Origin: a virus
Lineage: Duplodnaviria; Caudoviricetes
Direction: 5' to 3' (one strand)
IMG/VR virus record: IMGVR_UViG_3300021408_000005
Location: 1-56,688 of that record
Length of the DNA: 56,688 bases
Shown here: in pieces, positions 13,300-37,877 of the stretch
Layout of the letters: each line of letters opens with the position of its first letter
Position numbering within the stretch: the first letter of the stretch is position 1
The notes under the pieces: model-generated
What the model was told of the DNA's origin: nothing
The model's input: the letters and a program-made list of their open reading frames with translations, nothing else
The model's database searches: none
Translations under genes and position numbers: made by a program

Positions 13300-13460
13300 A
13301 CCCAGAAGACATGAAGGACAAGGTCTGTGATGTGTGCGAGGAGACCAAGCGCTTCGACAAGGTCCGCAAGATCTACAACGGAGAGGGCATCAGCTTGGTC
13401 TGCGAGACCTGCGCCGGTTCCGGTCGCATGAACGAGGTGCTCCATGCCGACAACGGATGA
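13296..13460 (+). CDS. Small zinc-finger protein
   Basis: ATGA-coupled 54-aa ORF with CDVC..CETC, translated by hand. Confidence 0.55.
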   Translation: MNPEDMKDKVCDVCEETKRFDKVRKIYNGEGISLVCETCAGSGRMNEVLHADNG

Positions 13461-14307
13461 GCCGACCGTAGCCATCCTGGGCTGTGGGCCTGCCGGGCTC
13501 ATGGCCGCTCACGCATGCGCCCTGTCCGGCGTCCGGCATGCCGTCTTCAGCAAGCCCCAGCACTCGGTTCTTGGGGGAGCGCAGTTCCTCCACTCGCCCA
13601 TCCCCGGCTTGACCGACCAGCTCCCTGAGGCAGTCGTCAACTACTGCGTCATTGGTGATGCCGCCACCTATCAGGCCAAGGCCTATGGGCAGGGGCATCA
13701 GCCGTCGTTCGTCAGCTTTGACAACGTCTCCAACCGATCGACCCAGCCTGCCTGGAACTTGGTCAGTGCCTACAGCAAGTTGTGGGATGCGTACGAGAAG
13801 ACAATCAACGACTTCACGGTCAAGGCCGAGCACCTGACCGATGGCACATTCGATCAGTTCGACCTGGTCATCAGCAGCATCCCGAGGCCGTTCCTGTGCA
13901 AGCAGCAGTCATCGTCTCCGGCAGATCAGATGCCCAACGGCCACGTGTTCAACTACCAGACCATCAAGATCATGCCGGGGCAGTGCTTCGTGCCCGATAG
14001 CTGGCATGGTGGGCCTTCAAACATGCACATCTTCTACAACGGCAGCCCCGGGCAGTCGTGGTACCGCTCGTGCAACCTGTGGGGCCATCGGTTCACTGAG
14101 TTCGGTGCGCACCTGTCGTTGCCTTACGACGGCATCAAGACTGCACGCAAGCCGCTGACCCATAACTGCGATTGCCATTCGGACAGCGACAAGTTGATGT
14201 TCGTCGGCAGGTACGGCAAGTGGCAGAAGGGCGTGCTGACCCATGGCGCCTTCCTCGATACCGTAGACATCTTGAACACGAGGGGGCTTGCCAAGAATGT
14301 TGTGTAG
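13444..14307 (+). CDS. FAD-dependent oxidoreductase (UDP-galactopyranose-mutase/amine-oxidase-like fold)
   Basis: VAILGCGPAGLMAA, GAQFLH, VISSIP, FVGRYGKW. Confidence 0.8.
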   Translation: MPTTDEPTVAILGCGPAGLMAAHACALSGVRHAVFSKPQHSVLGGAQFLHSPIPGLTDQLPEAVVNYCVIGDAATYQAKAYGQGHQPSFVSFDNVSNRSTQPAWNLVSAYSKLWDAYEKTINDFTVKAEHLTDGTFDQFDLVISSIPRPFLCKQQSSSPADQMPNGHVFNYQTIKIMPGQCFVPDSWHGGPSNMHIFYNGSPGQSWYRSCNLWGHRFTEFGAHLSLPYDGIKTARKPLTHNCDCHSDSDKLMFVGRYGKWQKGVLTHGAFLDTVDILNTRGLAKNVV

Positions 14308-14953
14308 CAATTGCTCACGACCAGTGCGTCCGGTCGTTGCGTTGGACATCGACGGCACGCTGGCCCAGTATCACAAGCAGTTCGTCACCTTCGCCGCCAC
14401 GTATCTCAACAGATACGACGAGCTGGTTCGCTGGCTGACCTACGACGGCGCCAAGGAAATGTCGGACTTCATGGAGTTGCCAAAGGAGACGTATCGGCAG
14501 ATCAAGCTGGCGTACCGGCAGGGGGGCAACAAGAGATGGATGGAGCCGTTCAAGGAGGCCGCTGGCTTCGTCATGCTGGTACGTGAGCTCGACGTGGAGC
14601 TGTGGATCACCACGACCCGGCCATGGCAGCGGCTGGACAACATCGACCCTGACACCCAGGAATGGCTGAGGCGCAACGCCATTCTTCATCACGGCTTGAT
14701 CTACGACGAGGACAAGTACCATAGGCTCGTTGAGATCGTGGGGCCTGACCGGGTCGTAGCCGTGCTGGAAGACGACTACGAGCAGTACCTCATAGCGGAG
14801 CGGCTGGGCCTCCACCCTATTCTCCGCAGGACGTCGTTCAACCGGCGTGTGCCGCTGCCGGGAAGGCCAGTGGAGGCCATGACCTTCGCCGATGCGTACG
14901 CATTGATCGAGCAGGCTGTCAACGCCTGGAAGAAGGAGAAGACAGATGCGTGA
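14297..14953 (+). CDS. HAD-family (5'-nucleotidase-like) phosphatase
   Basis: LDIDGTLA, ITTTRP, K, LEDD motifs. Confidence 0.8.
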   Translation: MLCSNCSRPVRPVVALDIDGTLAQYHKQFVTFAATYLNRYDELVRWLTYDGAKEMSDFMELPKETYRQIKLAYRQGGNKRWMEPFKEAAGFVMLVRELDVELWITTTRPWQRLDNIDPDTQEWLRRNAILHHGLIYDEDKYHRLVEIVGPDRVVAVLEDDYEQYLIAERLGLHPILRRTSFNRRVPLPGRPVEAMTFADAYALIEQAVNAWKKEKTDA

Positions 14954-15464
14954 GTTCGATTGCGAGGATGCCATCAATGGCCTGGGAGGACTGGGGTTCT
15001 CGGGCCGTGTGTCGGACAACCACGACCATCACGAACACATGAAGGTACTGGCCAAGGTGATGGCCGTGTACGTGGAGCGCAACGCCAAGTACCACAACAC
15101 CTGGGAGCAGTACGGAGCTCTGGCCCAGCTGGTCCGTGCTGCCCAGAAGGTCGACCGACTCATGGCCATGTGGTGGTTCGAGGAGTACCCGGGCTCGGAC
15201 CCCGAGGCCAGACCGAACCGTGTTCCCCTGACGGAAGAGGATCTGGACGACGCCGAGGACGCCATCAACCATCTGATCTTCTTCATGCGCTGCGCCAGGG
15301 CCGGCAACCTGTTCGGCAGCAAGCCCGATCGGCCGCACCCTCTCCAGAAGAAGGTTCTCTTTGATGTTGGGGAGGATCCTGGTATGCCGGAGGTCACCAG
15401 GCAGCTTCGTGAAGAGATCCCACGCACATTGTACTTCTGGGAGCCGCCCAGTGAGGGTAGCTAA
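14946..15464 (+). CDS. DUF1599/Nmad1-like all-helical nucleotide-modification-associated protein
   Basis: 'ERNAKYHNTW..G....KVDRL....DDAEDAINH' pattern. Confidence 0.6.
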   Translation: MREFDCEDAINGLGGLGFSGRVSDNHDHHEHMKVLAKVMAVYVERNAKYHNTWEQYGALAQLVRAAQKVDRLMAMWWFEEYPGSDPEARPNRVPLTEEDLDDAEDAINHLIFFMRCARAGNLFGSKPDRPHPLQKKVLFDVGEDPGMPEVTRQLREEIPRTLYFWEPPSEGS

Positions 15465-15690
15465 CCAGTTCTACTGGCAAGAGTTCGCTCGATGTAAAGG
15501 CTTAGGGCCTGACGTGTTCTATCTTGATAAGGGCGGAGACGTCAATAGGGCGAAGGGCATATGCTCAACCTGTCCGGTCCGTCAGGTGTGCTATGACTAT
15601 GCCCTGAACAATGAGAGGTTTGGGATATGGGGAGAGGCAAGTGCCAAGCAGCGCAAGCAGGCACGTAAGGAACTGAGAGAGGCGTCATAG
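15451..15690 (+). CDS. whiB: WhiB-family transcription factor
   Basis: W..ARC..AKGICSTCPVRQVC..GIWG. Confidence 0.9.
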   Translation: MRVANQFYWQEFARCKGLGPDVFYLDKGGDVNRAKGICSTCPVRQVCYDYALNNERFGIWGEASAKQRKQARKELREAS

Positions 15691-18600
15691 TGGGACCCCA
15701 CAACCTCAAGGCTTGGGACACTGGGGAAGTGAAGTCGTCCAGGGGCACGGCTATCTTCTGTTCCCTACATCATCATTCGACCTTCTCCTACTTGGACGGC
15801 TACGGCACCCCCGAGGACCACGTTCGGGCAGCAGCCGAGCTCGACATGTACGCAATGGCTCTGACTGAACACGGCAACGTGACGTCGCACGGCCAGCTCG
15901 AGAGGGCAGCTGACAAGTACAACGTCAAGCCGATCTTCGGATGCGAGTTCTACTGCGGGGACATAGGCGAAGGCGCAACCCAGAAGAAGAACCATCTGAC
16001 CGTGCTAGCCGTGGACCAGGCCGGCTATCGCAACCTGCTGCGCATGATCAGTGAGGCATGGGCCAAGGGTTTCTACTACCAGCCGACCATAGACGGCGCC
16101 ATGCTGAAGGAGTACAACGAAGGGCTCATCGTGATGTCGGGGTGCCAGGGTTCACTACTGGCTACGTCCCTGATCGGAGGCAAGAACATTGAGCCTGAGG
16201 ACGCCAGCTACGACCGAGCTCGTGGTGTAGCCAGACGCTTCAAGGATCTGCTAGGCGACCGGTACTACCTGGAATGCCAGGCCTTCCCCGAGCTCGACAA
16301 GACCAAAGACATCAACGCCGGGTTACGGCAGATAGCTTCTGAGCTCAGCATTCCCTTAGTGGCAACGCTGGACGCTCACTACACGGCGCCGGCTGAAGGC
16401 AGGATGCAAGCCATCCTCCACAACGTACGTGCGGGACACAGGAAGACTCTCGAGCAGCTAGATCAGTCCTGGGGCTACGACGTACCGCTGTGCCCACTGA
16501 GTGATAAGGACGTCTATCAGCGGCTGCGTCATACCGGTCTGTCCAGGGTCGAAGCAGAGGGCGCCGTACGCAACACCAGGGTCATAGCAGAGCGTTGTTC
16601 GGTCCGACTGCCCAAGGTGGCCAATCTGCGCTATCCGTTGCCGCCCGGAGTGCCGGACAGTTTGACGCTGTTCCGCAAGTGGGTGAACGATGGCTGGAAG
16701 TTCCGGGGCTTTCCCACGCTCCCTCCCGCAGAACAGCGGCGCTACATCGACCAGGCCAAGTATGAGATGGCCATGATTGAGGAGAAGGACTTTGTCGACT
16801 ACTTCCTCCATACCGCAGACGCCGCCGTCTATGCTAAGGATATGGGAATCCCTGTCGGCCCAGCCCGGGGGTCTGCGGCCGCTAGCCTCGTGTGCTATCT
16901 ACTTCGTATTACAGAAGTCAATCCCATGCTCTTCCCTACCCTTCTGTTTGAAAGGTTCATCGACAAGAACCGCCACGACCTGCCCGATATTGATCTGGAC
17001 TTCGATGATGAGCTCAGGTATCTCGTACGTGACTATCTCGCCGAGAAGTACGGGCAAGACCGAGTTGGGAACATAGGGACGTTCACTCAGTACAAGGGCA
17101 AGAACAGTCTTGACGATGTCCAGCGTGCCGCTTATCCAGATGACTGGGAGTGCAAGCGTGCGGTGGAGACTGTCAAGTCTCTACTGATAGAGCGCCGACC
17201 TGGCGACCTGCGGACCAACGCCACCATTGAAGACAGCATAGAAATGTTCCCTCAGGTTGCCGAAGTGTTTGAGAGGTATCCAGAGCTATGGCGTGCTACC
17301 GACTTGGAGGGAAACGTACGAGGTTTCAGCGTTCACGCCGCCGGACTTGTCGTTGCAAACGAACCGCTCAGCAACTTCTGCGCCATGTACGTGCGGACAG
17401 ATGCAGACGGCAAGGTCAAGCTAGACGAGTCGGGCGAGCAGATGATGGTGGTAAGCCTTGACAAGATAGATGCCGAGTACATGGGTGCTATGAAAGATGA
17501 CTTTCTAGGGCTGAAGACCATGGCCATGGTCCGCATAGCACTTGAGAACATTGGTATGTCTCTCAACGATCTGTACAACATTCCCCTTGACGACGAGATC
17601 ACCATCGATGGCTTCCGACGGGGCGACGTCATCGGAGTCTTCCAGTACGACGGCAGGGCTACGGCTCAGGTGAACGCCGGCGTCAAGCCCGACAACTTCT
17701 TTGAGATCGCTGACATCAACGCACTGTCCCGACCTGGCCCGCTTCACTCAGGGGCTACCGGGCAGTACATCGACGTCAAGCACGGCCGAGCTGAGCCGAT
17801 GCACTATCACAAGATCATTGACGACATCACGGTACACACTCAGTATCAGGTCGTCTATCAGGAACAGATCCTACAGATCGTGAGGGACCTTGGCGGATTC
17901 TCCTGGGAAGAGGCGGCCCGTATCCGCAAGATCATCAGCAAGAAGCGGGGAGAACAAGAGTTCAACACCATGCGAGCCAAGTTCAAGTCCGGAGCAGCCA
18001 AGCACGGACTCGACTCTGAAGATGCAGATCGTGTGTTTAGTATGTTGGCAACGGCAGGAGCGTACGCCTTCAATGCTGCGCATTGTGTCTCATACGGAAT
18101 GCTTGCGTACTGGACCATGTGGCTCAAGCAGCATCACACAACCGCCTTCTATGTAGCTTGCCTGACCAAGTATAAGGATAAGAAGAACCGATTACTGAAG
18201 CGCTTCGAATCCAAGATCAACTACATCCTTCGTGACGCCAAGGCGCACGACATCGAGATACAACCTCTGACTCCGTACTGCGAGGCGGAGTGGAGTGTGA
18301 CAGGGCCGAAGTCCATCGTGCCGGGCTTCTGTCAAGTACCGGGTATAGGCTCAAAGACAGCAGCCAACATCCTCAACACCCCTGATCTTGAAACCTGGGA
18401 AGACTTCATTCAGGTCAAGGGCATCGGAGCCAAGACGGTTGATCTGCTGTGGGACTTCGCCGAGAACCCGGACCCCTTCAACCTCAATGAGCTGGAAGAA
18501 CGCATCACGCCAGTGCGCAAGCAGCTGACCCTCAAGGGCGGAGTGTGGGCCACGGACTACGAGGGCGTGTTCACAGGCGTGCCGGAGCAGTCCTATCGGC

Positions 18601-19007
18601 TGCCACGCCCCACCCACCGCTCCGCAGACGTGCCGTACGACAAGGGCGCCGATGAGCCTGTTGTCTGGTGCGGGGTCATCCGGGACTTCAACCTGAAGGA
18701 TCTGTTCGAGCTCCACCATTCACGTACTGGTGAAGTACTGGACCCGGCTACCGTGAAGGATCCACATCTGTTCGAGTACATGGTCATGACCGGCGAGGAC
18801 GAGACAGAAGTTGTCATCGTTACGGTTGACCGTTGGGCCTGGCCCAAGTGGAAAGAGGAGGTCTGGTCAATCAACTTGGATTCGGATGTGGTACTAGTAC
18901 GGGGCGTCAAGAAGGGCTATCAGGCCCGACGTGCCATCTACGTAACCCATCTGTGGGTTATGCAAACAGCACAAGAAGAAGCAACGGAGGATGAAGATGT
19001 CGCTTGA
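15690..19007 (+). CDS. dnaE: DNA polymerase III alpha subunit
   Basis: PHP (LHHHSTFSYLDG), ARGSAAAS, PDIDLDF, HAAG, DFLGL, YAFNAAH. Confidence 0.97.
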   Translation: MGPHNLKAWDTGEVKSSRGTAIFCSLHHHSTFSYLDGYGTPEDHVRAAAELDMYAMALTEHGNVTSHGQLERAADKYNVKPIFGCEFYCGDIGEGATQKKNHLTVLAVDQAGYRNLLRMISEAWAKGFYYQPTIDGAMLKEYNEGLIVMSGCQGSLLATSLIGGKNIEPEDASYDRARGVARRFKDLLGDRYYLECQAFPELDKTKDINAGLRQIASELSIPLVATLDAHYTAPAEGRMQAILHNVRAGHRKTLEQLDQSWGYDVPLCPLSDKDVYQRLRHTGLSRVEAEGAVRNTRVIAERCSVRLPKVANLRYPLPPGVPDSLTLFRKWVNDGWKFRGFPTLPPAEQRRYIDQAKYEMAMIEEKDFVDYFLHTADAAVYAKDMGIPVGPARGSAAASLVCYLLRITEVNPMLFPTLLFERFIDKNRHDLPDIDLDFDDELRYLVRDYLAEKYGQDRVGNIGTFTQYKGKNSLDDVQRAAYPDDWECKRAVETVKSLLIERRPGDLRTNATIEDSIEMFPQVAEVFERYPELWRATDLEGNVRGFSVHAAGLVVANEPLSNFCAMYVRTDADGKVKLDESGEQMMVVSLDKIDAEYMGAMKDDFLGLKTMAMVRIALENIGMSLNDLYNIPLDDEITIDGFRRGDVIGVFQYDGRATAQVNAGVKPDNFFEIADINALSRPGPLHSGATGQYIDVKHGRAEPMHYHKIIDDITVHTQYQVVYQEQILQIVRDLGGFSWEEAARIRKIISKKRGEQEFNTMRAKFKSGAAKHGLDSEDADRVFSMLATAGAYAFNAAHCVSYGMLAYWTMWLKQHHTTAFYVACLTKYKDKKNRLLKRFESKINYILRDAKAHDIEIQPLTPYCEAEWSVTGPKSIVPGFCQVPGIGSKTAANILNTPDLETWEDFIQVKGIGAKTVDLLWDFAENPDPFNLNELEERITPVRKQLTLKGGVWATDYEGVFTGVPEQSYRLPRPTHRSADVPYDKGADEPVVWCGVIRDFNLKDLFELHHSRTGEVLDPATVKDPHLFEYMVMTGEDETEVVIVTVDRWAWPKWKEEVWSINLDSDVVLVRGVKKGYQARRAIYVTHLWVMQTAQEEATEDEDVA

Positions 19008-19611
19008 CAATCCCGTACCCATGAAGCCCGAAGGCGTGGCGGGTCGCATCAAGACCTACACGGAGAACCAGGTCAGCTACTCACTGTTGCGTCGGGCTAT
19101 GAGGGTTGGCAACAAGGCCGAGTCTGAACTGGCCTTGACGTGTGGTCTGAGCGTGGACGTGGACGAGGTTGCCATCCTGTTCAACAACGAGAGTCAGCTG
19201 CAACAGTTCTCCAACGACATCCACCGCCAGTACGGCTGGCACATCTTCAACGTGGTGGAGTCCGGGCTGGTCAACGAGGTGGGCCTGAGGGGCAGCCACC
19301 AGCAAGACAGCTACGAGGCCACGTACGTCTTCGTGTCGCACCTGCTGGTTCCCGGCATCCGGTTGGAGCTGATGCTGGTCAGGAGTGGGCAGGCGTCCCT
19401 CCACGACGACGTCAGCGACCCCAGGATCATGCATGCCAGCTGGAAGACTCCCAGCTTGGAGGCCTACGAGTCCCACATGCGGACGCTGGACGACCAGTTG
19501 GTCCCCATCGCCAAGGAGTACGTGAGCGACTACGGCCGGTTCAGCTACTGGGGCCACGAAGCCCCGTACCTCAAGCCCCGAGTCAACCTGCGTGACCAGG
19601 CAAGCGGCTAG
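18991..19611 (+). CDS. Hypothetical protein, possibly VOC/glyoxalase-like
   Basis: 'RLELM' and 'MHASWK..SLEAYE' resemble VOC strands; weak. Confidence 0.55.
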   Translation: MKMSLDNPVPMKPEGVAGRIKTYTENQVSYSLLRRAMRVGNKAESELALTCGLSVDVDEVAILFNNESQLQQFSNDIHRQYGWHIFNVVESGLVNEVGLRGSHQQDSYEATYVFVSHLLVPGIRLELMLVRSGQASLHDDVSDPRIMHASWKTPSLEAYESHMRTLDDQLVPIAKEYVSDYGRFSYWGHEAPYLKPRVNLRDQASG

Positions 19612-19628
19612 AAGTCCTTCATCAACAC

Positions 19629-19657
19629 TTGCTAACTACCTACCCATACGCTACGTT
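19629..19657 (+). promoter_or_regulatory. Sigma-70-type promoter
   Basis: TTGCTA-N17-TACGTT. Confidence 0.55.
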
Positions 19658-19690
19658 GCGTGCCGACACCAAACCTTGAAAGGAAGCGCA

Positions 19691-20089
19691 ATGACTGACA
19701 CCAACGACCGGGTCGGCCCGGAGCCCACCAACTGGGACGCTCCTCCCCGACCTGTTCACGTCCAGGAGTTCAACAAGGAGCCCGCTGGGACCGACTACGC
19801 CAGCTGGGCGTTCCTGACCGGGATGGTCGGGCTGTTCCTGGGCGTGGTCGTGCCGGCCATCAACTGGTACTTCCCGCTCCTGCCGTCCGCTCTCGCTGTC
19901 GGGCTGGCCATCCACGCCATGAAGCACCACACTCCCCGCAAGGGCATGGTCTTCTTCGGCCTGGTCGGCGGCGTGCTGGGGCTGCTGTGCACCCTCGACC
20001 TGTACACGATGTACAACGACGCCATGAACCAGCTCAGCTGCGTCGAAGAGGCTCCTACCCTGGGTGCGATGGCGGAGTGTGATGGCTGA
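19691..20089 (+). CDS. Membrane protein (DUF4190-like)
   Basis: GAAAGGA SD; 2-3 hydrophobic segments. Confidence 0.65.
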   Translation: MTDTNDRVGPEPTNWDAPPRPVHVQEFNKEPAGTDYASWAFLTGMVGLFLGVVVPAINWYFPLLPSALAVGLAIHAMKHHTPRKGMVFFGLVGGVLGLLCTLDLYTMYNDAMNQLSCVEEAPTLGAMAECDG

Positions 20090-20801
20090 CCTTCTCGTCA
20101 TCGGCGCACGCCAGGATAGCATCGGCGAAGCCGTCGTGGAGCAGGCCCAGGCCAGCGGCTGGCGAGTCAACACTGTGGGGATCGAGGAAGAGGAACTCTA
20201 CATCGACCTGAACAGCCAGAACCTGGAACTTGGCATGATCATGCAAGGATTGATGCTTGCTGGCTATCACGCTGTGGTCTGCACTGCCGGCATCAACGAG
20301 GAGTCGTCAATCCTGCGGCCCCTGGATCGGCGCCACATGGGCGTGAACTACCACGGCCACATGCTGGCCCTGACCCACTGGCTGCGGTACTGGGATGCTC
20401 ACCCGGAGCTGCATGGCGTCGTTCCACCTGCTGCCCTGCACTGGGTCAGCGTGTCGAGCAACAGCGCACACATCGCCCGGAGCCAGTCGCTGTCCTACTG
20501 CGCCAGCAAGGCGGCTCTGTCCATGGGCATTCGCTGTGCGGCTCGTGAGATGGCCGACAAGGGACCGTACGCTATCTACGGCTACGAACCCGGCTGGGTG
20601 GACGACACACCCATGAGCGAGGATGTGGAGCGTCGCCTGGATCGTGAGGCAGGGGCGATGATGAGGGGTACCCAGCTCCACCGCATCCCTGGCGGCAACA
20701 CCATGCACCGTGCGGTCCTGGCTTCGATCATCGTCGACAACCTGGCCCGAGGCACTTCTCTCAACGGCTGCATGATCCGGCTGGACGGAGGGGAGCAGTG
20801 A
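20082..20801 (+). CDS. Short-chain dehydrogenase/reductase
   Basis: IGA..DSIG, CTAGIN, VSS, YCASK, LDGG. Confidence 0.9.
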   Translation: MADLLVIGARQDSIGEAVVEQAQASGWRVNTVGIEEEELYIDLNSQNLELGMIMQGLMLAGYHAVVCTAGINEESSILRPLDRRHMGVNYHGHMLALTHWLRYWDAHPELHGVVPPAALHWVSVSSNSAHIARSQSLSYCASKAALSMGIRCAAREMADKGPYAIYGYEPGWVDDTPMSEDVERRLDREAGAMMRGTQLHRIPGGNTMHRAVLASIIVDNLARGTSLNGCMIRLDGGEQ

Positions 20802-20802
20802 C

Positions 20803-20886
20803 ATGACTGTCACCCTGATCTTCATCGGCATCGGTCTCACGATCGGCACTGGCATTGCCCTTATCGCAGGGTGCGTAGCGGGATGA
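20803..20886 (+). CDS. 27-aa hydrophobic peptide
   Basis: MTVTLIFIGIGLTIGTGIALIAGCVAG with an SD; ATGA-coupled to the next ORF. Confidence 0.45.
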   Translation: MTVTLIFIGIGLTIGTGIALIAGCVAG

Positions 20887-21116
20887 ACGACTGGCAGCTC
20901 TGGTACTTGTTGGTGGTCCTAGTCATCACGATGATGATGGTTGGGCACAAGGGTGGCGGCGTGCTCGATATGGCCGTCGTGTACGTGTTGGTGTTCTTCG
21001 GGTTGCCGTTGGTACTAGGGTTTGCCGGGCTGTACTTCCTACTGTGCCTTCTCAGCGGCACCCCTCGTCCTCCTCGCAGTTCCCGCACGTCCGACTACGG
21101 AGAAGCGCAGCAGTAG
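20883..21116 (+). CDS. Small membrane protein
   Basis: Two hydrophobic helices. Confidence 0.55.
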   Translation: MNDWQLWYLLVVLVITMMMVGHKGGGVLDMAVVYVLVFFGLPLVLGFAGLYFLLCLLSGTPRPPRSSRTSDYGEAQQ

Positions 21117-21121
21117 TTCAC

Positions 21122-21190
21122 GGGTCGTCAGAGTAAGCCGTCCACCCCCAGTGCGGCAGGCTGACAACTGGTTCGAGTCCAGACGACCCA
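21122..21190 (+). ncRNA. Atypical tRNA-like element
   Basis: GGGTCGT/ACGACCC-A acceptor and CTGG-TTCGAGT-CCAG T arm; no canonical D or anticodon arm. Confidence 0.55.
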
Positions 21191-21378
21191 CTTAGAATGG
21201 AGAGGGGGTGGCATTAATGAGACAGATCGACACCAACGAGTTCTGATACTGCCTCCGCCGTCGGCGAGGATGGTCACGCTCCGCACTTGGGTGCCGTAGA
21301 TTCATGATCTAGGGCGTGACGCTTATGAAACGCTTAGGTCTCTTAGTACTTCTTATGATTATCGGAGGTCAACTGGCT

Positions 21379-21693
21379 ATGGCCAAGAAGCTTCGTAAGG
21401 TTGAGGTTGATCTTAGCCGCTACAACGAAGGCCCCAAGCTTCCCGAGCGCTACAACGACGGGTCGACTGGATGGCATCTCCCCAACGATGTGCCGGTCTA
21501 TGGCAGGGCGCATCGCCTTCTGGGTCCCACTGCGGATGGGGAGAGTGAGGGCCTGAAAGGGTGGACGGTCGAGCTCGACGCCTGGACCTTCGGGGTGAAG
21601 GTGTTCCTGCGCATCGGCATGGACAGCACCATGAAGCTGTTCATCCAAGAGGGCGACGACAAGCCTATCAAGTTGGAGGAGTGGGACAAGTGA
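21379..21693 (+). CDS. Hypothetical protein
   Basis: GGAGG SD before MAKKLRK. Confidence 0.65.
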   Translation: MAKKLRKVEVDLSRYNEGPKLPERYNDGSTGWHLPNDVPVYGRAHRLLGPTADGESEGLKGWTVELDAWTFGVKVFLRIGMDSTMKLFIQEGDDKPIKLEEWDK

Positions 21694-21784
21694 CCTGGCA
21701 AGACTTGCTGAGCGTAGCCGGTTGGGCTGGTGTAGGCCTGTGTGGCGCCATCTGGGCCTACTCCCACATCCGTTGGGGGAACCG

Positions 21785-21952
21785 ATGAGTCGGGTTGTTC
21801 AGTCACTAGAGGACGAGTACAGCAAGACGTTCCAGCTGTACCTGTACACTCCCAAGTGGAACTTCATCGTTAGGTTCTTCCGTTACCGCAAGTCGATGGC
21901 GTGGCTGAAGGCCATGTCTGAGACCATCAAGTGGGAGATCACTCATGGCTGA
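21785..21952 (+). CDS. Hypothetical protein
   Basis: ATGA-coupled small ORF. Confidence 0.45.
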   Translation: MSRVVQSLEDEYSKTFQLYLYTPKWNFIVRFFRYRKSMAWLKAMSETIKWEITHG

Positions 21953-22142
21953 GCCCGTCAGTACCTGGCCGGTCGGCAAGCGTCCGCTCAACAGCGTACA
22001 TCTCGAGCCGTGCGACGGCTGCGACCACTCGTGGCCCGAAGACAAGCTGCATCGAGTCGAGATCGGCGACAAGAAGCAGAAGCTGTGCGACGTCTGCTGC
22101 CCCAACTGCTTCGGAGGAGAAGGCAATGGCCCTGCAACCTGA
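21945..22142 (+). CDS. Small zinc-finger protein
   Basis: CDGC..CDVC..C. Confidence 0.55.
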   Translation: MAEPVSTWPVGKRPLNSVHLEPCDGCDHSWPEDKLHRVEIGDKKQKLCDVCCPNCFGGEGNGPAT

Positions 22143-22419
22143 ACTTGAGGGCGGCACTGATGCCGAGTTCAACTACGTGCGAACCAAGCACCACATGCAC
22201 TCCTTCAGGGTCCAACCCAGTAAGGAGCCTGGCGGCTACATGGCGGCGATGGTCGGGGCCAACCTGGTGCGCCCGTGGGCTACCGCCATCGTGCTGTTCG
22301 CCGAGGAGATGAACGACGGCTACCTGTATGTGTCGTGGGTGGACGAGGGCTTGCGTTCCCCCGAGCCCCCTCCGCCTGTGGATCTGTACGGGCTGGCTCT
22401 TCCGGTGGTGGACGGATGA
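22126..22419 (+). CDS. Hypothetical protein
   Basis: GGAGGAG SD before MALQPEL. Confidence 0.55.
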   Translation: MALQPELEGGTDAEFNYVRTKHHMHSFRVQPSKEPGGYMAAMVGANLVRPWATAIVLFAEEMNDGYLYVSWVDEGLRSPEPPPPVDLYGLALPVVDG

Positions 22420-22724
22420 GGGTCTCCCACAGTACATACGAGGCCATGGTCAAGGAACTACAGACCTACCGTCTGTTCTGTGCTGAGGCCTTCTGGGAGG
22501 ACGTCGGCTTGGGCCTGTGGAATGACCCCAGGTTCGAGCACATCCGTGAGCAGGCCAAGGCAGACGCAGACCCCGACAACCCTGACTTCCTAGTGTGTCG
22601 TGGAGGACCGATGCAAGAGAAGATCAAGGCCACGTACTACCACACAGTCGAGCCCGGCAAGCAGTGCCAGCATCTCTGGCACTACGACTGCCCGGCAGGC
22701 TGTCACAAGCCCAAGGAGGCATAG
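22416..22724 (+). CDS. Hypothetical protein
   Basis: ATGA-coupled ORF. Confidence 0.55.
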   Translation: MRVSHSTYEAMVKELQTYRLFCAEAFWEDVGLGLWNDPRFEHIREQAKADADPDNPDFLVCRGGPMQEKIKATYYHTVEPGKQCQHLWHYDCPAGCHKPKEA

Positions 22725-22726
22725 CA

Positions 22727-23281
22727 ATGAGCGCATGGGACGATGCAAGCGCAGACCCCAGCGACAAGAAGAACCCGTACATCAAGCCTGACCTCGACCC
22801 CTTCGAGAAGACCAAGGATGGCATTAGGAAGGCTGGGGCGGACTTCTTGTACGAGATGCAGAACTTGGGCAAGCAGGTCAGGGAAGAGGCCACTGCCGGC
22901 GTGCTCAAGTCCATGATGGCCGAGGTCGAGACGGTCCACGCTGACCGGCTTGCTGCTGCCGGCATGGGGCAAGAGCGCCTGCACCGACAGGTTCCGACCG
23001 ATTGCGCTCACCTGCACGCCGAGGTGTCAGAGATCTTCGAAGCTTGGCGCAAGGGACTGACCGGCCCAGACCTGGTTCTGACCGAGGACGGCATCCGGCA
23101 TGTAGCCAGTGTGGATATGGGGCCAGCCAAGCCTGTGGGTACGCACGCTGAGGCAGCTGACGTCCTCATCCGGCTGCTGGACTTCTGTAACCGCAACAAC
23201 ATCGACCTTCACAAGCAGTACCGGCGTGTGATGGACTACAACGCCGGTCGTGACTGGACCAAGGAGGGCAAGCGCTCATGA
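22727..23281 (+). CDS. MazG-like nucleotide pyrophosphohydrolase
   Basis: HAEVSEIFEAWRK..EAADVLIRLLD..MDYNAGR. Confidence 0.8.
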   Translation: MSAWDDASADPSDKKNPYIKPDLDPFEKTKDGIRKAGADFLYEMQNLGKQVREEATAGVLKSMMAEVETVHADRLAAAGMGQERLHRQVPTDCAHLHAEVSEIFEAWRKGLTGPDLVLTEDGIRHVASVDMGPAKPVGTHAEAADVLIRLLDFCNRNNIDLHKQYRRVMDYNAGRDWTKEGKRS

Positions 23282-23793
23282 CTTATCAGTTCCAGACAAC
23301 GATCAACGGGGTCAGCATGGGCTACTCCGAGATTGACAATGAGCACTACGTCATCAAGTACAGCTTGGAGGACTGCACAGTCGGCATGAGTCGTGCTGCG
23401 ATCAAGACTGCTCTCCGCAAGGGGAAGAGGGGAGACCCGAGGAAGTGTCATCTGTCGGTGGCGGTAATGGCCGACAAGACTAACGGGGTGATCGAGACAG
23501 CTTTCCTGACAACGCACACTTACTTGAGGTACGCCAGTGATCCGCAGGTCTGGAAGAAGTTCCGTAACTCAGCTGCCACCCAGCGCTTCATTCAGGGCTT
23601 CGACCGAGGTAACGAACCCCTGGCTTCTGCCGATGGCTTCGTGTATGTGGAGCTACATGCTGTCCCGCCTTCGGAGCAACCGGATAGGACGGGCGACTCC
23701 GGCTCTCAGTCCAAGAAGCGCAAGCCACCCCAGAAGACCACTCGGTTATCTCGTGTTCAGGCCGCAGCAAAGTTCTCGGAGAAGGCAAGATGA
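23278..23793 (+). CDS. Hypothetical protein
   Basis: ATGA-coupled on both sides. Confidence 0.7.
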   Translation: MTYQFQTTINGVSMGYSEIDNEHYVIKYSLEDCTVGMSRAAIKTALRKGKRGDPRKCHLSVAVMADKTNGVIETAFLTTHTYLRYASDPQVWKKFRNSAATQRFIQGFDRGNEPLASADGFVYVELHAVPPSEQPDRTGDSGSQSKKRKPPQKTTRLSRVQAAAKFSEKAR

Positions 23794-24854
23794 CTGACAA
23801 GACCCCCAGCGATCGCTTGCGTGCGTTCGAGGACAAGATGGAACGGGAGGCCGATCCTGAGCTGCATCCCCTACCCATCAAGTGGGGCGATGCCCAGCAG
23901 TTCAACCAAGAGCTGTTCGAGGAGCCCCAGCAAGACGGAGGTGGCGTCGAGCCGAAGGTCACGCTGCTGTCCATGACTCCGGAGCCGCTCCGGGCCATCG
24001 CTGCCATGTGCGCCATGTACGAGGGCCGTGTGGTGCGTGACCTGGCCGACCTGGACGAGGACTACGTCCGGCAGAAGTGGGCCGACGTGCTGGCTACGCA
24101 CCTGGACACTCCGTTGGAGGCCGTGCAACTGCACTTTCTGATCGAAGGGGTTGACCGGGCCTTCACCCACCAGTTGGTGCGGCAGCGTGTCGGGGCTGCC
24201 TACGCCCAGGAGTCGCTTCGCTTCGCTGTAGTGGAAGACCTGAAGTCTGCGACCACCCTCCCGCCCTCCCTCGCAGGCACCAAGCCTCTTGGTTTGCACG
24301 GTCCGGACGAAGGCCCCATCAGCAAAGAGCAGGACTGGCGCAACGTCTGGGAGCGTGTTCTCTCTGAGATCGACTGGGGTTACCGGCGCCTGGTGGATAG
24401 CGGGATGCCTGCGGAGGAGGCGAGGGGGCTGTTACCGCACTGCACGGCCACTCGCATCCACTACGTCACCAACCTACGTGCCCTGAGCGATCACGCCGGC
24501 AACCGGCTATGCACGCAGGCTCAGTTCCACTGGCGCCTAGTGTTCGCACAGATCATCGACGCCATCCGGAACTACATGGGTCCGGGAGCAGGGCCGTCAA
24601 GGTGGCAGTACGAGGCCATCGCCGATAGTGCGTTGTTCCGGCCGGTCTGCTTCAAGCTGGGTCGCTGTCCGTTCAAGGCGTCGTTCGACCGGGCCTGCTC
24701 CATCCGTGAGCGGGTGGATGCCAATGCTGCATTGGGGCGTCCTAGCGTGCAGTGGCACGTTGAGTCCAAGCCTCCCGAGGGCCTAGGCATCAACCCCATC
24801 CCCGCCATCCAGCCTGCCGAGTGGCTGGCCAACCCAGGGGCTGCTCGTGCCTAG
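23790..24854 (+). CDS. thyX: Flavin-dependent thymidylate synthase-like protein (variant)
   Basis: RAFTHQLVRQR..QESLRF, EEARGLLP, NLRAL..RLCTQAQ. Confidence 0.85.
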   Translation: MTDKTPSDRLRAFEDKMEREADPELHPLPIKWGDAQQFNQELFEEPQQDGGGVEPKVTLLSMTPEPLRAIAAMCAMYEGRVVRDLADLDEDYVRQKWADVLATHLDTPLEAVQLHFLIEGVDRAFTHQLVRQRVGAAYAQESLRFAVVEDLKSATTLPPSLAGTKPLGLHGPDEGPISKEQDWRNVWERVLSEIDWGYRRLVDSGMPAEEARGLLPHCTATRIHYVTNLRALSDHAGNRLCTQAQFHWRLVFAQIIDAIRNYMGPGAGPSRWQYEAIADSALFRPVCFKLGRCPFKASFDRACSIRERVDANAALGRPSVQWHVESKPPEGLGINPIPAIQPAEWLANPGAARA

Positions 24855-37002: not shown

Positions 37003-37877
37003 TGGCTGTGCCGGCAGAGGAGCTGGCACGCTCACAGGGCCTTGTACAGCCCCTCAGGATCACTGAGGGCATCACCCGGTCAGAACTGGCCGCAACGCTG
37101 CGTGCGGCCGCACAGGAGGCCGGTGAGCGGCTGCTGTTCGCCTTGGCCAACAACCGACTGACGGAAGCCGCACAGCTACAGGCATCGATCGACAGCCTCG
37201 GTTCTCTATCGCAATCCATGTGGGGTCAGATCGGCGGACAGACCCGGGCCGGCATCTACAACGCCAGTGAGCTGGCAGCCAATCACCAGATGGACCGTGA
37301 GTACTTGATGGGCATGCCCTTCAATGCGATAGGGCAGTACGCCGATGATATGTACTTCAGCGCCTTCCAGTCGGCCGAGGACATCATCAGCCGCCGGACC
37401 AACGGGTTCGCTCTGCAGGATCGTATCTACCGCAACGGCCAGGCCACTACGATGCAGGTCGGCAAGATCGTCGAGCAATCGCTGGCGCTACAGCAGTCGG
37501 CCCGGCAGATAGCAGCGAAGGTCAAGCAGTTCTACAGCCCCAACGTGCCAGGCGGAGCCAGCTACGCAGCCATGCGCCTTGGCCGCACTGAGATCAACAA
37601 CGCCCATCACGACACTACCATAAGGCTGACAGAGGATAAGCCGTGGGTGAACGGCTACAAGTGGAACCTGTCCGGCAGCCATCCCCGCCCTGACATCTGC
37701 AACATCTACGCCGAGCGCAACTCCGGCCTGTTCACCAAGAAGACCGTGCCGTCGAAGCCGCACCCTCAGTGCCTGTGCTATCTGACGGTTGAGATGGACG
37801 ACCCGGACGAGTTCCAACGTCGCATGACCAAGGGCGAGTACGACGACACCTTCGATGAGCTCGGCGTGACCTGCTAA
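37002..37877 (+). CDS. MuF-like minor head protein
   Basis: RLGRTEINNA, HPRPDIC, PHPQCLC. Confidence 0.85.
   Translation: MAVPAEELARSQGLVQPLRITEGITRSELAATLRAAAQEAGERLLFALANNRLTEAAQLQASIDSLGSLSQSMWGQIGGQTRAGIYNASELAANHQMDREYLMGMPFNAIGQYADDMYFSAFQSAEDIISRRTNGFALQDRIYRNGQATTMQVGKIVEQSLALQQSARQIAAKVKQFYSPNVPGGASYAAMRLGRTEINNAHHDTTIRLTEDKPWVNGYKWNLSGSHPRPDICNIYAERNSGLFTKKTVPSKPHPQCLCYLTVEMDDPDEFQRRMTKGEYDDTFDELGVTC

Follow-up and report, generated by a model that had tools for sequence, protein, structure and literature searches.

A conserved flavoprotein, HAD phosphatase, Nmad1-like and divergent ThyX cassette around the DnaE polymerase of actinophages: a candidate pyrimidine-tailoring pathway

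The 56,688-nucleotide stretch of Caudoviricetes DNA analysed here (IMG/VR record IMGVR_UViG_3300021408_000005, henceforth the window) comes from a soil phage and carries, around the phage's own DnaE, a cassette that is widespread among phages, here in its actinophage form. The conserved core of this cassette, which is linked across hundreds of phages, encodes a flavoprotein, a HAD phosphatase of NT5C type, a divergent ThyX and a DUF1599/Nmad1-like protein. Tentatively, with a probability of about 0.45, the cassette may be read as a pre-replicative pyrimidine-tailoring pathway that yields a modified thymidine. All the genes from which an earlier note had proposed a non-canonical pyrimidine pathway are present, on the + strand and with the coordinates given below, among the following features:

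13444..14307, + strand: compact FAD flavoprotein, 287 aa (in Pfam only the N-terminal GxGxxG stretch; phrog_8720, 1.8e-57)
14288..14953, + strand: HAD-superfamily phosphatase, NT5C/PNKP-phosphatase-like (phrog_415, 7e-11)
14946..15464, + strand: DUF1599/Nmad1-like protein, 172 aa (family-level PF07659 matches and an Atlas lead)
15361..15690, + strand: WhiB-like regulator (PF02467, 8.6e-16)
15690..19007, + strand: DnaE-type replicative DNA polymerase with PHP, pol III alpha, finger and HhH regions (Pfam and PHROG)
18991..19611, + strand: accessory protein of 206 aa, possibly of glyoxalase/VOC fold, a lead only (Atlas score 0.90)
20064..20801, + strand: accessory SDR (adh_short, 39.2 bits; phrog_3142)
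22595..23281, + strand: accessory MazG-like nucleotide pyrophosphatase (phrog_3301, 7.7e-15)
23278..23793, + strand: protein of 171 aa with no database match, its start and stop overlapping both neighbours
23790..24854, + strand: divergent ThyX-fold flavoenzyme, 354 aa (Pfam Thy1, 100.5 bits)

The gene overlaps noted earlier are confirmed: the flavoprotein and HAD genes overlap by 20 nt, and the HAD gene overlaps that of the 172-aa protein by 8 nt. The WhiB gene, which the earlier note did not mention, separates the cassette from dnaE; it was not found in the related loci on locus comparison, and it is no part of the pathway; its true start is probably later than the one called. Several small membrane or unknown ORFs between 19.6 and 22.6 kb, also passed over earlier, are not common to the relatives. 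The 171-aa protein has no match in Pfam, PHROGs, NCBIfam or the PDB, and is a singleton in the locus clustering, with no relatives across the loci. Family scans of the window ORFs gave zero matches to DNA methyltransferase, glycosyltransferase, PurZ, queuosine and P-loop hmU-kinase families, in agreement with the absences claimed before, and no kinase, transferase or dCMP deaminase was found in the window by Pfam and family scans.

Co-occurrence of these genes across phages, which had been put forward as a check on the proposed pathway, proved strongly positive in both cultured phages and IMG/VR loci. The flavoprotein recovered 126 phage records in tblastn searches (Gordonia 46, Microbacterium 36, Mycobacterium 32, Streptomyces 9, Arthrobacter 2 and Nocardia 1), and the ThyX-like protein recovered Gordonia 50, Microbacterium 36, Mycobacterium 32 and Streptomyces 9. 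Among 80 IMG/VR loci seeded with the flavoprotein, a ThyX-like gene lies within the locus in 61, elsewhere in the record in 3 more, and on the same contig, by way of the ThyX-seeded search, in 3 further cases; the remaining 13 loci end less than 10 kb downstream. Conversely, the flavoprotein is present in 53 of 80 loci seeded with the ThyX-like protein; 24 of the other 27 have less than 7.5 kb of upstream flank (3 of these sit on contigs where the flavoprotein-seeded search had it), 2 more end at the HAD or Nmad1 gene, and a single locus (L164) truly has no flavoprotein in its flank. On the whole, the core occurs in the 126 cultured actinophage records and in almost all related viral contigs whose flank is long enough. 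In L164 the usual place of the HAD and the flavoprotein, between the primase and Nmad1 genes, holds a YfbR-like HD 5'-deoxynucleotidase and a nucleoside 2-deoxyribosyltransferase-family gene. Clustering of 86 loci placed the flavoprotein in 83, DnaE in 80, the 172-aa protein family in 77 and the HAD in 72, compared with 31 for the SDR, 8 for the MazG-like family and 7 for the 206-aa protein family; the last three, of which the 206-aa one is the possible VOC gene, vary between loci and count as accessories to the four-gene core.

The gene order is fixed across the related loci as flavoprotein-HAD-Nmad1-(SDR/MTase/VOC)-DnaE-...-ThyX, and the flavoprotein gene of the Microbacterium phage Krampus lies directly against ThyX. 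The same replication module keeps an SNF2 helicase, an exonuclease, a RecA-like protein, an SSB and a primase in set order; the core is inherited within this one syntenic module, and hence its co-occurrence alone is no proof of a shared pathway. The primase and helicase of the window gave no tblastn match in the loci compared, which were others than those of Pbunavirus and Wifcevirus. Cluster D mycobacteriophages (Benzema gp60-67, PBI1) and the Gordonia Lambovirus Sadboi (gp70-83) carry orthologues in identical order, with identities to the window of 31-34% for the flavoprotein, 42-43% for the HAD, 41-46% for DnaE and 42-43% for the ThyX-like protein, and share the SDR as well; a separate comparison gave 45-47% identity between the window DnaE and those of Streptomyces phages and cluster D Mycobacterium phages. 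The Benzema and Sadboi blocks are annotated as oxidoreductase, 5' nucleotidase, methyltransferase, hypothetical, FabG-like reductase, DnaE and ThyX-like. Phages of this type add a small SAM methyltransferase (PF08241) that the window does not have, whereas the WhiB gene, the possible VOC protein and the MazG-like gene are found in the window and not in these blocks.

The earlier description of the ThyX as a variant is borne out by mapping its residues onto T. maritima ThyX, which shows that canonical catalytic and folate-site residues are missing. Its model (pLDDT 84) finds T. maritima ThyX as the best Foldseek match (TMt 0.73-0.75), and its score against TIGR02170 is 67.6 bits, below the cut-off of 87.9. 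In this map L105, Q132 and F145 take the places of His53, His79 and Tyr91, whereas the equivalents of R78, R80, S88, R90, R147 and R174 of the canonical enzymes (T. maritima, M. tuberculosis) are present, so that all five nucleotide-binding arginines and the Ser88 equivalent are retained. The His53 to Leu, His79 to Gln and Tyr91 to Phe changes show no or almost no variation within the clade, with L105, R131, R133, S142, R144, F145, R212 and R239 invariant in 46 of 46 members; among 66 aligned flavoprotein-adjacent ThyX-like proteins, the His of the RHR motif occurs in none and the Tyr is missing from 64. The canonical phage ThyX proteins of CoffeeBean and Carmen17 retain all three residues, and the triple loss recurs in PB1 and Wifcevirus ThyX. 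The ThyX-like protein is also longer than canonical ThyX by ~55 N-terminal and ~90 C-terminal residues, with three invariant Cys there. Tyr91 is described in the available text of one study as strictly conserved, its mutation making flavin oxidation 1000-fold slower (PMC11940539). As none of the dUMP-binding arginines is lost, nor Ser88, the protein is most simply read as a functional thymidylate synthase whose active site is compensated.

The flavoprotein has 311 homologues, none of which bears a named function. Its AlphaFold2 model (pLDDT 93.7) displays the two-domain fold of UDP-galactopyranose mutases (UGMs) and protoporphyrinogen oxidases: the best Foldseek matches in the PDB are UGMs (E ~3e-8, TM 0.5), which make up the top 29 among the matches listed, and the best VIA match is the UGM 4dsg_A (Z 15.6 over 266 aligned residues; next Z 13.3). 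Since other two-domain flavoenzymes reach Z 12-13, the modelled fold class is clear and the function is not. The protein shares an N-terminal FAD fold with UGM (Glf), its best structural neighbour, but has 287 residues as against 360-470, is 10-14% identical to it and gives no Pfam GLF match.

The HAD protein is, as judged from its sequence, a probable 5'-deoxynucleotidase. The orthologues of Benzema and Sadboi match PF06941 (NT5C), and the family as a whole retains the DxDGT, Lys and Asp motifs, with D20, D22, G23, K143 and D162 kept in 72 of 72 members and T24 in 71. The 172-aa protein has no Pfam match of its own; DUF1599 (PF07659) is matched by 8 of the 62 scanned members of its family, with scores of 18-24 bits that fall short of the cut-off of 25, and the viral cluster to which it has an Atlas score of 0.91 contains DUF1599 in 11% of its members. 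It is probably an all-alpha NTP-pyrophosphatase-type domain. Of the accessories, the SDR scores above the adh_short cut-off of 26.6 bits and keeps S132, Y145 and K149. The MazG-like protein, which has no Pfam match, probably starts at an internal Met. The label "VOC-like" given earlier to the 206-aa protein stands as an Atlas lead to a Glyoxalase cluster, its score resting on a mere 122 shared features, and found no profile or structural backing in Pfam, NCBIfam, PHROG or the PDB.

A connection to modified DNA is suggested by the Pbunaviruses. LC-MS of F8 and 14-1 DNA (Yee et al. 2025 preprint, PMC12191111) revealed, within a TG motif, derivatives of thymidine (362 and 390 U) that take the place of about one quarter of T; the available portion of that preprint assigns no genes to this hypermodified thymidine. 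The Pbunavirus PB1 has in common with the window the triple loss in ThyX (PB1 motif RTR...SRA; both match phrog_85), a phrog_415 HAD and an Nmad1-like domain. The latter two are separate genes in the window and fused in PB1 ORF57, in which a HAD domain (phrog_415, PF25109) precedes an Nmad1-like C-terminus that is matched by the HMM of the 172-aa family at 5e-7. Wifcevirus AV128 encodes an SDR of the window family (family HMM match at 4e-48) and a member of the VOC-type family of the related loci (2e-28), and in both genera the cassette genes adjoin polymerase genes, as in the window. The candidate PB1 flavoprotein, ORF65, belongs to phrog_4828 as against phrog_8720 and is weakly alike (hhalign probability 67% over 22 columns); the window flavoprotein otherwise gave an hmmsearch E of 0.006, to AV128 only, and a BFVD match to a PA5 protein at TM 0.5. 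A further difference is that these phages have Gram-negative hosts. Closer to the window, some uncultured relatives carry TET-associated (TAGT)-type glycosyltransferase genes, which were counted in 12 of the 113 related loci left after removal of redundancy, with 9 of the 12 scanned exceeding the Pfam cut-off. In four groups they directly adjoin core genes of the cassette: the ThyX-like gene in L119, L152/L155 and L156, and in L008 one lies between the flavoprotein and the HAD.

These likenesses, the co-occurrence of the core and the variant ThyX speak for the pyrimidine pathway first proposed for this region, which is weakened by the lack of a transferase or kinase in the window, by the avoidance of TG sites and by a linkage that may be mere inheritance. 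In such a pathway, the Nmad1-like, MazG-like and HAD proteins would deplete canonical dTTP/dTMP (or dUTP) and supply dUMP. The ThyX-fold enzyme, predicted to keep deoxyuridylate-type nucleotide and FAD binding and to have lost the folate-holding and methylene-transfer residues, would act with the flavoprotein as a reduced-flavin enzyme to place onto C5 of dUMP some group that is not a simple methyl. The SDR and the possible VOC protein might trim this group, and host kinases and the phage DnaE would carry the product into DNA. According to the available parts of Lee et al. (2018, 2021), SPO1, PhiW-14, SP10, ViI, M6 and PaMx11 share this logic in having a thymidylate-synthase-family enzyme, dTMP/dTTP depletion and their own polymerase, and in PaMx11 also a flavoprotein; however, these pathways depend on a dUMP hydroxymethylase of ThyA type, on a P-loop 5-hmdU DNA kinase and on an aGPT-Pplase transferase, for which scans of the window gave no match, and M6 gp58 does not match the window ThyX-like protein. 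A precedent for the change from folate to flavin chemistry is offered, in the accessible text of Lee et al. (2026, PMC13326640), by the 5-hydroxy-dCMP synthases of RB69 and DLP3, which make a new C5-substituted pyrimidine nucleotide that is later glycosylated on DNA; these are ThyA-fold enzymes acting on dCMP, whereas the window enzyme has the ThyX fold and a uracil-type site.

It is quite possible, if not favored here, that the cassette serves ordinary thymidylate supply and pool hygiene, with the ThyX-like protein a true flavin-dependent synthase from a viral lineage that has diverged, the flavoprotein helping to keep its flavin reduced or playing a separate redox role, the HAD, Nmad1-like and MazG-like proteins balancing or cleaning the dNTP pool, and the DNA containing canonical bases only. 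This is consistent with the Thy1 fold and family match, with the invariance of the nucleotide-binding arginines and Ser88, with the gene being the sole thymidylate-synthase-family member of the record in Pfam scans, and with its naming as ThyX-like thymidylate synthase by the annotators of more than 100 actinophages. The frequency of short sites points the same way: TG-containing palindromes are rarer than expected in the window (O/E 0.60 for TGCA, 0.81 for CATG, 0.31 for CTGCAG and 0.23 for GTGCAC) and CGCG is absent against ~205-361 expected, suggesting that this DNA is under restriction pressure, as would fit unprotected DNA. Unlike the TG-context modification of F8 and 14-1, there is no sparing of TG sites, and a TG-specific shield of the Pbunavirus type is not indicated; literature searches turned up no DNA modification for this phage or the 126 cultured actinophages. 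Against ordinary supply stand the joint loss of His53, His79 and Tyr91 in two divergent clades, given the 1000-fold effect ascribed to the Tyr91 mutant, the modified thymidine that the preprint describes for Pbunaviruses with the same ThyX variant, and the insertion of TAGT-type genes next to ThyX-like ones in some relatives. Moreover, a dTMP/dUMP-type nucleotidase, on what is generally known of NT5C, would be wasteful beside a dTMP synthase unless dTMP is to be removed.

Nucleotide or sugar-nucleotide chemistry with a product kept out of DNA, be it the destruction of host signalling or defence nucleotides or the synthesis of a small molecule or cofactor, is unlikely. The nearest solved folds of the flavoprotein do act on UDP-sugars and small molecules, the SDR, VOC, methyltransferase and MazG-type accessories differ between phages as in small-molecule pathways, and the window has no DNA-acting transferase, position beside DnaE then reflecting expression timing only. 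However, nearly all loci tie the core to the polymerase and to a ThyX-fold enzyme whose deoxyuridylate site is intact, the replacement genes of L164 indicate deoxynucleotides, and TAGT members are described by their Pfam name as DNA-base glycosyltransferases. That the genes have no common function and travel independently in a single old replication module, kept together by vertical descent alone, as the ordered helicase, exonuclease, RecA-like, SSB and primase genes would allow, is very unlikely given the relocated flavoprotein of Krampus, the fusion in ORF57, the 8-20 nt overlaps of core genes in the window, and the reappearance of the ThyX-like, HAD, Nmad1-like and SDR families in Pbunavirus and Wifcevirus loci. 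The modified-thymidine pathway, if it operates as envisaged, would concern an uncharacterised gene set for which annotations already exist in more than 100 actinophages.

A pathway that tailors a pyrimidine nucleotide, built on a ThyX that has lost its folate site and on a mutase-like flavoprotein, appears to be the best reading of the genes around the viral polymerase, with a probability of roughly 0.45. The cassette itself is already present in the databases, and the literature searched yielded no published function for it. Scans of the ORFs against Pfam, PHROG and NCBIfam placed every gene named in the earlier note at its coordinates, on the + strand; the list below adds the 171-aa protein to them:

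13444..14307, two-domain FAD flavoprotein
14288..14953, HAD phosphatase
14946..15464, Nmad1-like protein of 172 aa
15690..19007, DnaE polymerase
18991..19611, protein of 206 aa, proposed earlier as VOC-like
20064..20801, short-chain dehydrogenase/reductase (SDR)
22595..23281, MazG-like pyrophosphatase
23278..23793, protein of 171 aa
23790..24854, ThyX-like protein

The earlier note had named co-occurrence of these genes across phages as a check, and they do co-occur both in cultured phages and in viral contigs. The flavoprotein is found in 126 cultured phage records, distributed over phages of Gordonia (46), Microbacterium (36), Mycobacterium (32), Streptomyces (9), Arthrobacter (2) and Nocardia (1), and the ThyX-like protein occurs in the same hosts in nearly equal numbers (Gordonia 50, Microbacterium 36, Mycobacterium 32, Streptomyces 9); relatives of DnaE are found in 1,430 records. 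The maps of the actinophages Benzema, Sadboi, Gibson and Wollypog share the order oxidoreductase, phosphatase, (methyltransferase), hypothetical, (FabG-like), DnaE and then ThyX-like, and in Krampus the oxidoreductase directly abuts the ThyX-like gene. A search of viral contigs with the flavoprotein profile recovered 80 loci, 61 of which contain a ThyX-like gene within the locus, while three have one elsewhere in the record and a further three on the same contig by the reverse search; in each of the other 13 the contig ends less than 10 kb further downstream. When the ThyX-like profile was used as the query instead, 80 loci were again recovered, with the flavoprotein in 53. The remaining 27 comprise 24 with less than 7.5 kb of upstream flank, two that end at the HAD or Nmad1 gene, and a single locus, L164 (L-numbers denote related phage or viral loci, mostly uncultured contigs), that truly lacks the flavoprotein in its flank.

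Among 86 clustered loci the flavoprotein is represented in 83, DnaE in 80, the Nmad1-like protein in 77, the HAD phosphatase in 72 and the ThyX-like protein in 67, followed by the SDR (31), a T4-endonuclease-V-like protein (16), a TAGT-like glycosyltransferase (9), the MazG type of the window (8) and its 206-aa type (7). These counts define a core of flavoprotein, HAD, Nmad1-like and ThyX-like proteins around DnaE, with the rest as accessories. Since a helicase, an exonuclease, a RecA-like protein, an SSB and a primase are kept in order in the same loci, inheritance as one module is a real confounder of this co-occurrence. In its 16 loci the T4-endonuclease-V-like protein, a pyrimidine dimer DNA glycosylase by family (PF03013), is encoded by the gene that directly precedes the flavoprotein gene (for example L068:9220-9786 and L054:5380-6090). 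The window encodes DnaE in one piece, but many relatives (L003, L005 and IMG/VR loci such as L031, L037 and L066) encode it as two separate genes, and an HNH endonuclease gene frequently separates or flanks the two parts. Some relatives also carry a DUF4406 gene (PF14359), from a family of the nucleoside 2-deoxyribosyltransferase-like class, between DnaE and the ThyX-like gene (for example L082:16520-17239 and L032:18557-18991).

The ThyX-like protein, which the earlier note had called a variant ThyX, matches the Thy1 family (PF02511, 100.5 bits against a cut-off of 24.8), and its model (pLDDT 84) finds T. maritima ThyX as its best Foldseek matches (TMt 0.73-0.75); it falls below the equivalog cut-off of TIGR02170 (67.6 versus 87.9 bits). 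A profile of 46 clade members was aligned to solved ThyX sequences, which allowed the active-site residues to be mapped. Six of these are kept and invariant in 46/46 members, namely R131, R133, S142, R144, R212 and R239, which correspond to R78, R80, S88, R90, R147 and R174 of the T. maritima enzyme. At three further positions L105, Q132 and F145 replace His53, His79 and Tyr91, so that the motif reads RQR instead of RHR, with L105 and F145 again invariant in 46/46. The clade profile even scores the chain of a Y91F mutant ThyX above the wild type (35.1 versus 33.2 bits). Among the flavoprotein-linked ThyX-like proteins, the Tyr is absent from 64/66 and the His of RHR is present in 0/66. Two classes can be recognized: class 1 (n=41, RQR...QESxRF) has Phe at the Tyr91 position in 41/41 members, and class 2 (25 aligned, R[ST]R...QQSxRA) has Ala in 22, Phe in one and Tyr in two. 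The canonical phage ThyX proteins of Rhodococcus phage CoffeeBean and Bacillus phage Carmen17 retain all three residues. One study (PMC11940539) describes strict conservation of both Tyr91 and Ser88, reports that flavin oxidation becomes about 1000-fold slower when Tyr91 is mutated, and has His53 stacking on the folate pterin. Four cysteines of class 1 (C241, C287, C293 and C303) are also invariant in 46/46, three of them in a C-terminal extension, and they may form a metal site particular to a subclade. The idea that they hold a metal or Fe-S centre serving as a general electron relay was rejected because Krampus and Wollypog have other residues at all four positions.

For the "compact FAD oxidoreductase" of the earlier note, Pfam recognizes just the dinucleotide-binding stretch at the N-terminus, whereas phrog_8720 is matched at 1.8e-57. 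Its alignment-based model (pLDDT 93.7) retrieves UDP-galactopyranose mutases (UGM) first in Foldseek searches of the PDB (E ~3e-8, TM ~0.5), and an independent search against structural representatives also ranks UGM first (Z 15.6, 266/287 residues aligned), ahead of protoporphyrinogen oxidase (Z 13.3), with numerous flavin monooxygenases and amino-acid oxidases at Z 12-13. The likeness to UGM is one of fold only, with an identity of 10-14%. At 287 aa, against the three-domain architecture of ~360-400 aa of Glf, and with no Pfam GLF match, the protein has neither the length nor the sequence similarity expected of a UGM. Its model shows an FAD enzyme of two domains whose nearest structural class is that of the mutases and oxidases. 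A complex prediction for the ThyX-like protein with the flavoprotein returned a score of 0.00, which gives no verdict and is evidence neither way.

The HAD phosphatase of the window matches phrog_415 (7e-11) and reaches 17.2 bits with PF00702 (cut-off 26.4), and its orthologue in Benzema exceeds the cut-off of PF06941 (30.8 versus 24.8 bits). The catalytic motifs are kept across the family, with D20, D22, G23, K143 and D162 present in 72/72 members and T24 in 71/72, which bears out the earlier assignment. In L164 the usual place of the flavoprotein and HAD genes, both absent there, is taken by a nucleoside 2-deoxyribosyltransferase-family gene and a YfbR-like HD 5'-deoxynucleotidase gene (L164:4912-5999, between primase and Nmad1); this is the sole such related locus, and the YfbR-type gene at the HAD place supports a deoxynucleotidase role for the latter. 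The SDR, another of the earlier assignments that stood, scores 39.2 bits with adh_short (cut-off 26.6), and its family retains S132 in 31/31, Y145 and K149 in 30/31, and the glycine-rich motif (G14, G21) in 32/32 members. The MazG-like protein is recognized through PHROG only (phrog_3301 "pyrophosphatase", 7.7e-15; no Pfam or NCBIfam match). The 172-aa protein, earlier named DUF1599/Nmad1-like, has no Pfam match in the window copy; PF07659 (a 61-residue model, described in Pfam as DUF1599, "nucleotide modification associated domain 1") gives 18.2-24.1 bits, below the cut-off of 25, in 8/62 family members, with matches that span nearly the whole model, and an Atlas lead (score 0.91) points in the same direction. 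The VOC assignment of the 206-aa protein is a weak lead (Atlas 0.90, 122 shared features), as the protein shows no Pfam or PDB match and no HMM link to the VOC24 family of the relatives. No meaningful match to PDB sequences was returned by phmmer for the proteins of 172, 206 and 171 aa, and hhalign comparisons of the Nmad1-like family with three MazG/PRA-PH clusters, and of the VOC26 with the VOC24 family, gave no support (probabilities 0.1-18%).

A gene for a TAGT-like (TET-associated-type) glycosyltransferase is present in 12 of the 113 non-redundant groups into which 160 related loci fall, and PF20691 scores above its cut-off in 9/12 of these proteins scanned. The gene overlaps the start of the ThyX-like gene in L119 (9135-9944) and in L152 (9105-9917)/L155 (2564-3376), follows it in L156 (11118-12050), and lies between flavoprotein and HAD in L008 (10795-11625). 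Within the clusters scanned there is no TET/JBP gene beside the TAGT-type loci, and no TAGT-like gene was found in cultured actinophages by tblastn or in the window. The names Nmad1 and TAGT were reportedly coined in Iyer et al. 2013, and the meaning they imply is taken here from the Pfam descriptions only.

Comparisons with known systems point to the Pbunaviruses and Wifceviruses. The window shares with their type of cassette a ThyX without His53, His79 and Tyr91, together with a HAD phosphatase, an Nmad1-like domain and an SDR beside the polymerase; the ThyX of PB1 (a Pbunavirus) and of Wifcevirus AV128 show the same triple loss, and phrog_85 is matched by the ThyX of both the window and PB1. 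PB1 ORF57 is a PNKP-type HAD (phrog_415, PF25109) whose C-terminal part matches the HMM of the cassette Nmad1 family (5e-7), and AV128 proteins match the cassette SDR family (4e-48) and the VOC24 family of related loci (2e-28). The link of the flavoprotein to PB1 ORF65 (phrog_4828; PF00890 at its N-terminus, 15.8 bits) is weak, with an hhalign probability of 67% over 22-52 columns and an hmmsearch E of 0.006 for AV128 only; in BFVD the flavoprotein retrieves a protein of Pseudomonas phage PA5 at rank 3 (TM 0.5). According to the portion of Yee et al. 2025 (PMC12191111) available, DNA of the Pbunavirus F8 resists restriction enzymes with TG-containing sites, and LC-MS revealed new nucleosides in F8 (362 U) and 14-1 (390 U), described as thymidine derivatives that replace about a quarter of T; that portion names no genes for their synthesis. 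The part of the published literature examined likewise gave no gene assignment for Pbunavirus hypermodification, and Wifceviruses are described as considerably restriction-resistant in the available part of PMC11990801.

Taken to its full extent, the tailoring reading would have the ThyX-like protein, no longer using folate, work with the mutase-like flavoprotein through a reduced-flavin N5 adduct of a sugar-derived aldehyde in place of formaldehyde. This adduct would alkylate C5 of dUMP to give a C5-polyol or C5-glycosyl deoxyuridine nucleotide, the sugar phosphate would be removed by the HAD enzyme, the side chain might be trimmed by the SDR and VOC enzymes, and DnaE would incorporate the final nucleotide. 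By mass arithmetic, a pentose added to dU comes to 362.3 after reduction and dehydration, and a hexose added to dU to 390.3 after dehydration, which fit the preprint masses of 362 U and 390 U. We consider this scheme, from folate-independent ThyX-like protein and flavoprotein through the sugar-derived aldehyde on flavin N5 and C5-alkylated dUMP to DnaE incorporation, unlikely as a whole. Were it true, the cassette would be the missing gene set for Pbunavirus thymidine hypermodification, and hundreds of actinophages, including the window phage, would carry an undescribed thymidine derivative.

The principal alternative is that the cassette serves ordinary dTMP supply, a possibility to which we assign clearly less than even odds. 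If the ThyX-like protein were a normal thymidylate synthase, Tyr91 and His53, called essential, would be dispensable, which would matter for ThyX enzymology and inhibitor design. The window phage itself offers points against modification, namely its restriction-site avoidance and the absence from the window of any kinase, transferase or dCMP deaminase gene. CGCG is found at 0 sites, where a Markov model predicts ~205 and dinucleotide shuffles (both strands) give 361 ± 17, and GGGCCC at 0 against 19-26 expected, which points to strong selection by restriction systems of the host that cut these sites. Palindromes containing TG rank with the most strongly avoided (TGCA z -8.1, CATG z -6.4; CTGCAG O/E 0.31, GTGCAC O/E 0.23) and as a group are not spared (median O/E 0.71 versus 0.94 for 4-mers and 0.74 versus 0.92 for 6-mers; Mann-Whitney p 0.18 and 0.13). 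Hence the DNA of the window seems exposed to restriction enzymes at TG sites too.

The known 5-hmdU route of M6, ViI, SP10 and PhiW-14 (ThyA-type dUMP hydroxymethylase, P-loop 5-hmdU DNA kinase, aGPT-Pplase transferase) had no family matched among the window ORFs scanned, and the absence of DNA methyltransferase, glycosyltransferase, PurZ, queuosine and hmU-kinase genes listed in the earlier note holds for every ORF scanned. That the Pseudomonas matches of the ThyX-like protein are M6-like hypermodifying phages was rejected, as M6 gp58 gives no match and the matches are PB1-like phages.

The record is a linear IMG/VR sequence of 56,688 bases (completeness 89% by CheckV estimate, G+C ~60%) from a soil metagenome, and its DNA or part of it occurs, as assembled contigs only, in six soil-metagenome runs from four studies, two of which runs may be its origin. 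The cassette lies in a replication module at 4-25 kb that also encodes an SNF2 helicase, a PD-(D/E)XK exonuclease, a Toprim/MCM primase-helicase and an AAA_24 RecA-like protein. Among cultured phages its closest relatives infect actinobacteria, and its DnaE shares 45-47% identity with that of Streptomyces and cluster D Mycobacterium phages; megablast against the phage collection gave no nucleotide-level match to the 11.4-kb region. The structural module occupies 34-54 kb and includes, directly after the portal gene in the head module, a 435-aa protein (37877-39184, + strand) with a C-terminal ADP-ribosyltransferase exoenzyme domain (PF03496, 1.2e-17).

If the cassette does make a modified thymidine, it would represent the first base-replacement pathway on a ThyX-fold rather than a ThyA-fold enzyme, and the flavoprotein working with it would be of a new kind. 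The measured hypermodification of Pbunaviruses, a group much used in phage therapy against P. aeruginosa, would also gain its genes. Modified DNA would then be predicted for 126 or more cultured actinophages and for numerous soil phages, with consequences for how phages evade restriction, for which sequencing and cloning methods suit them, and for the discovery of enzymes.
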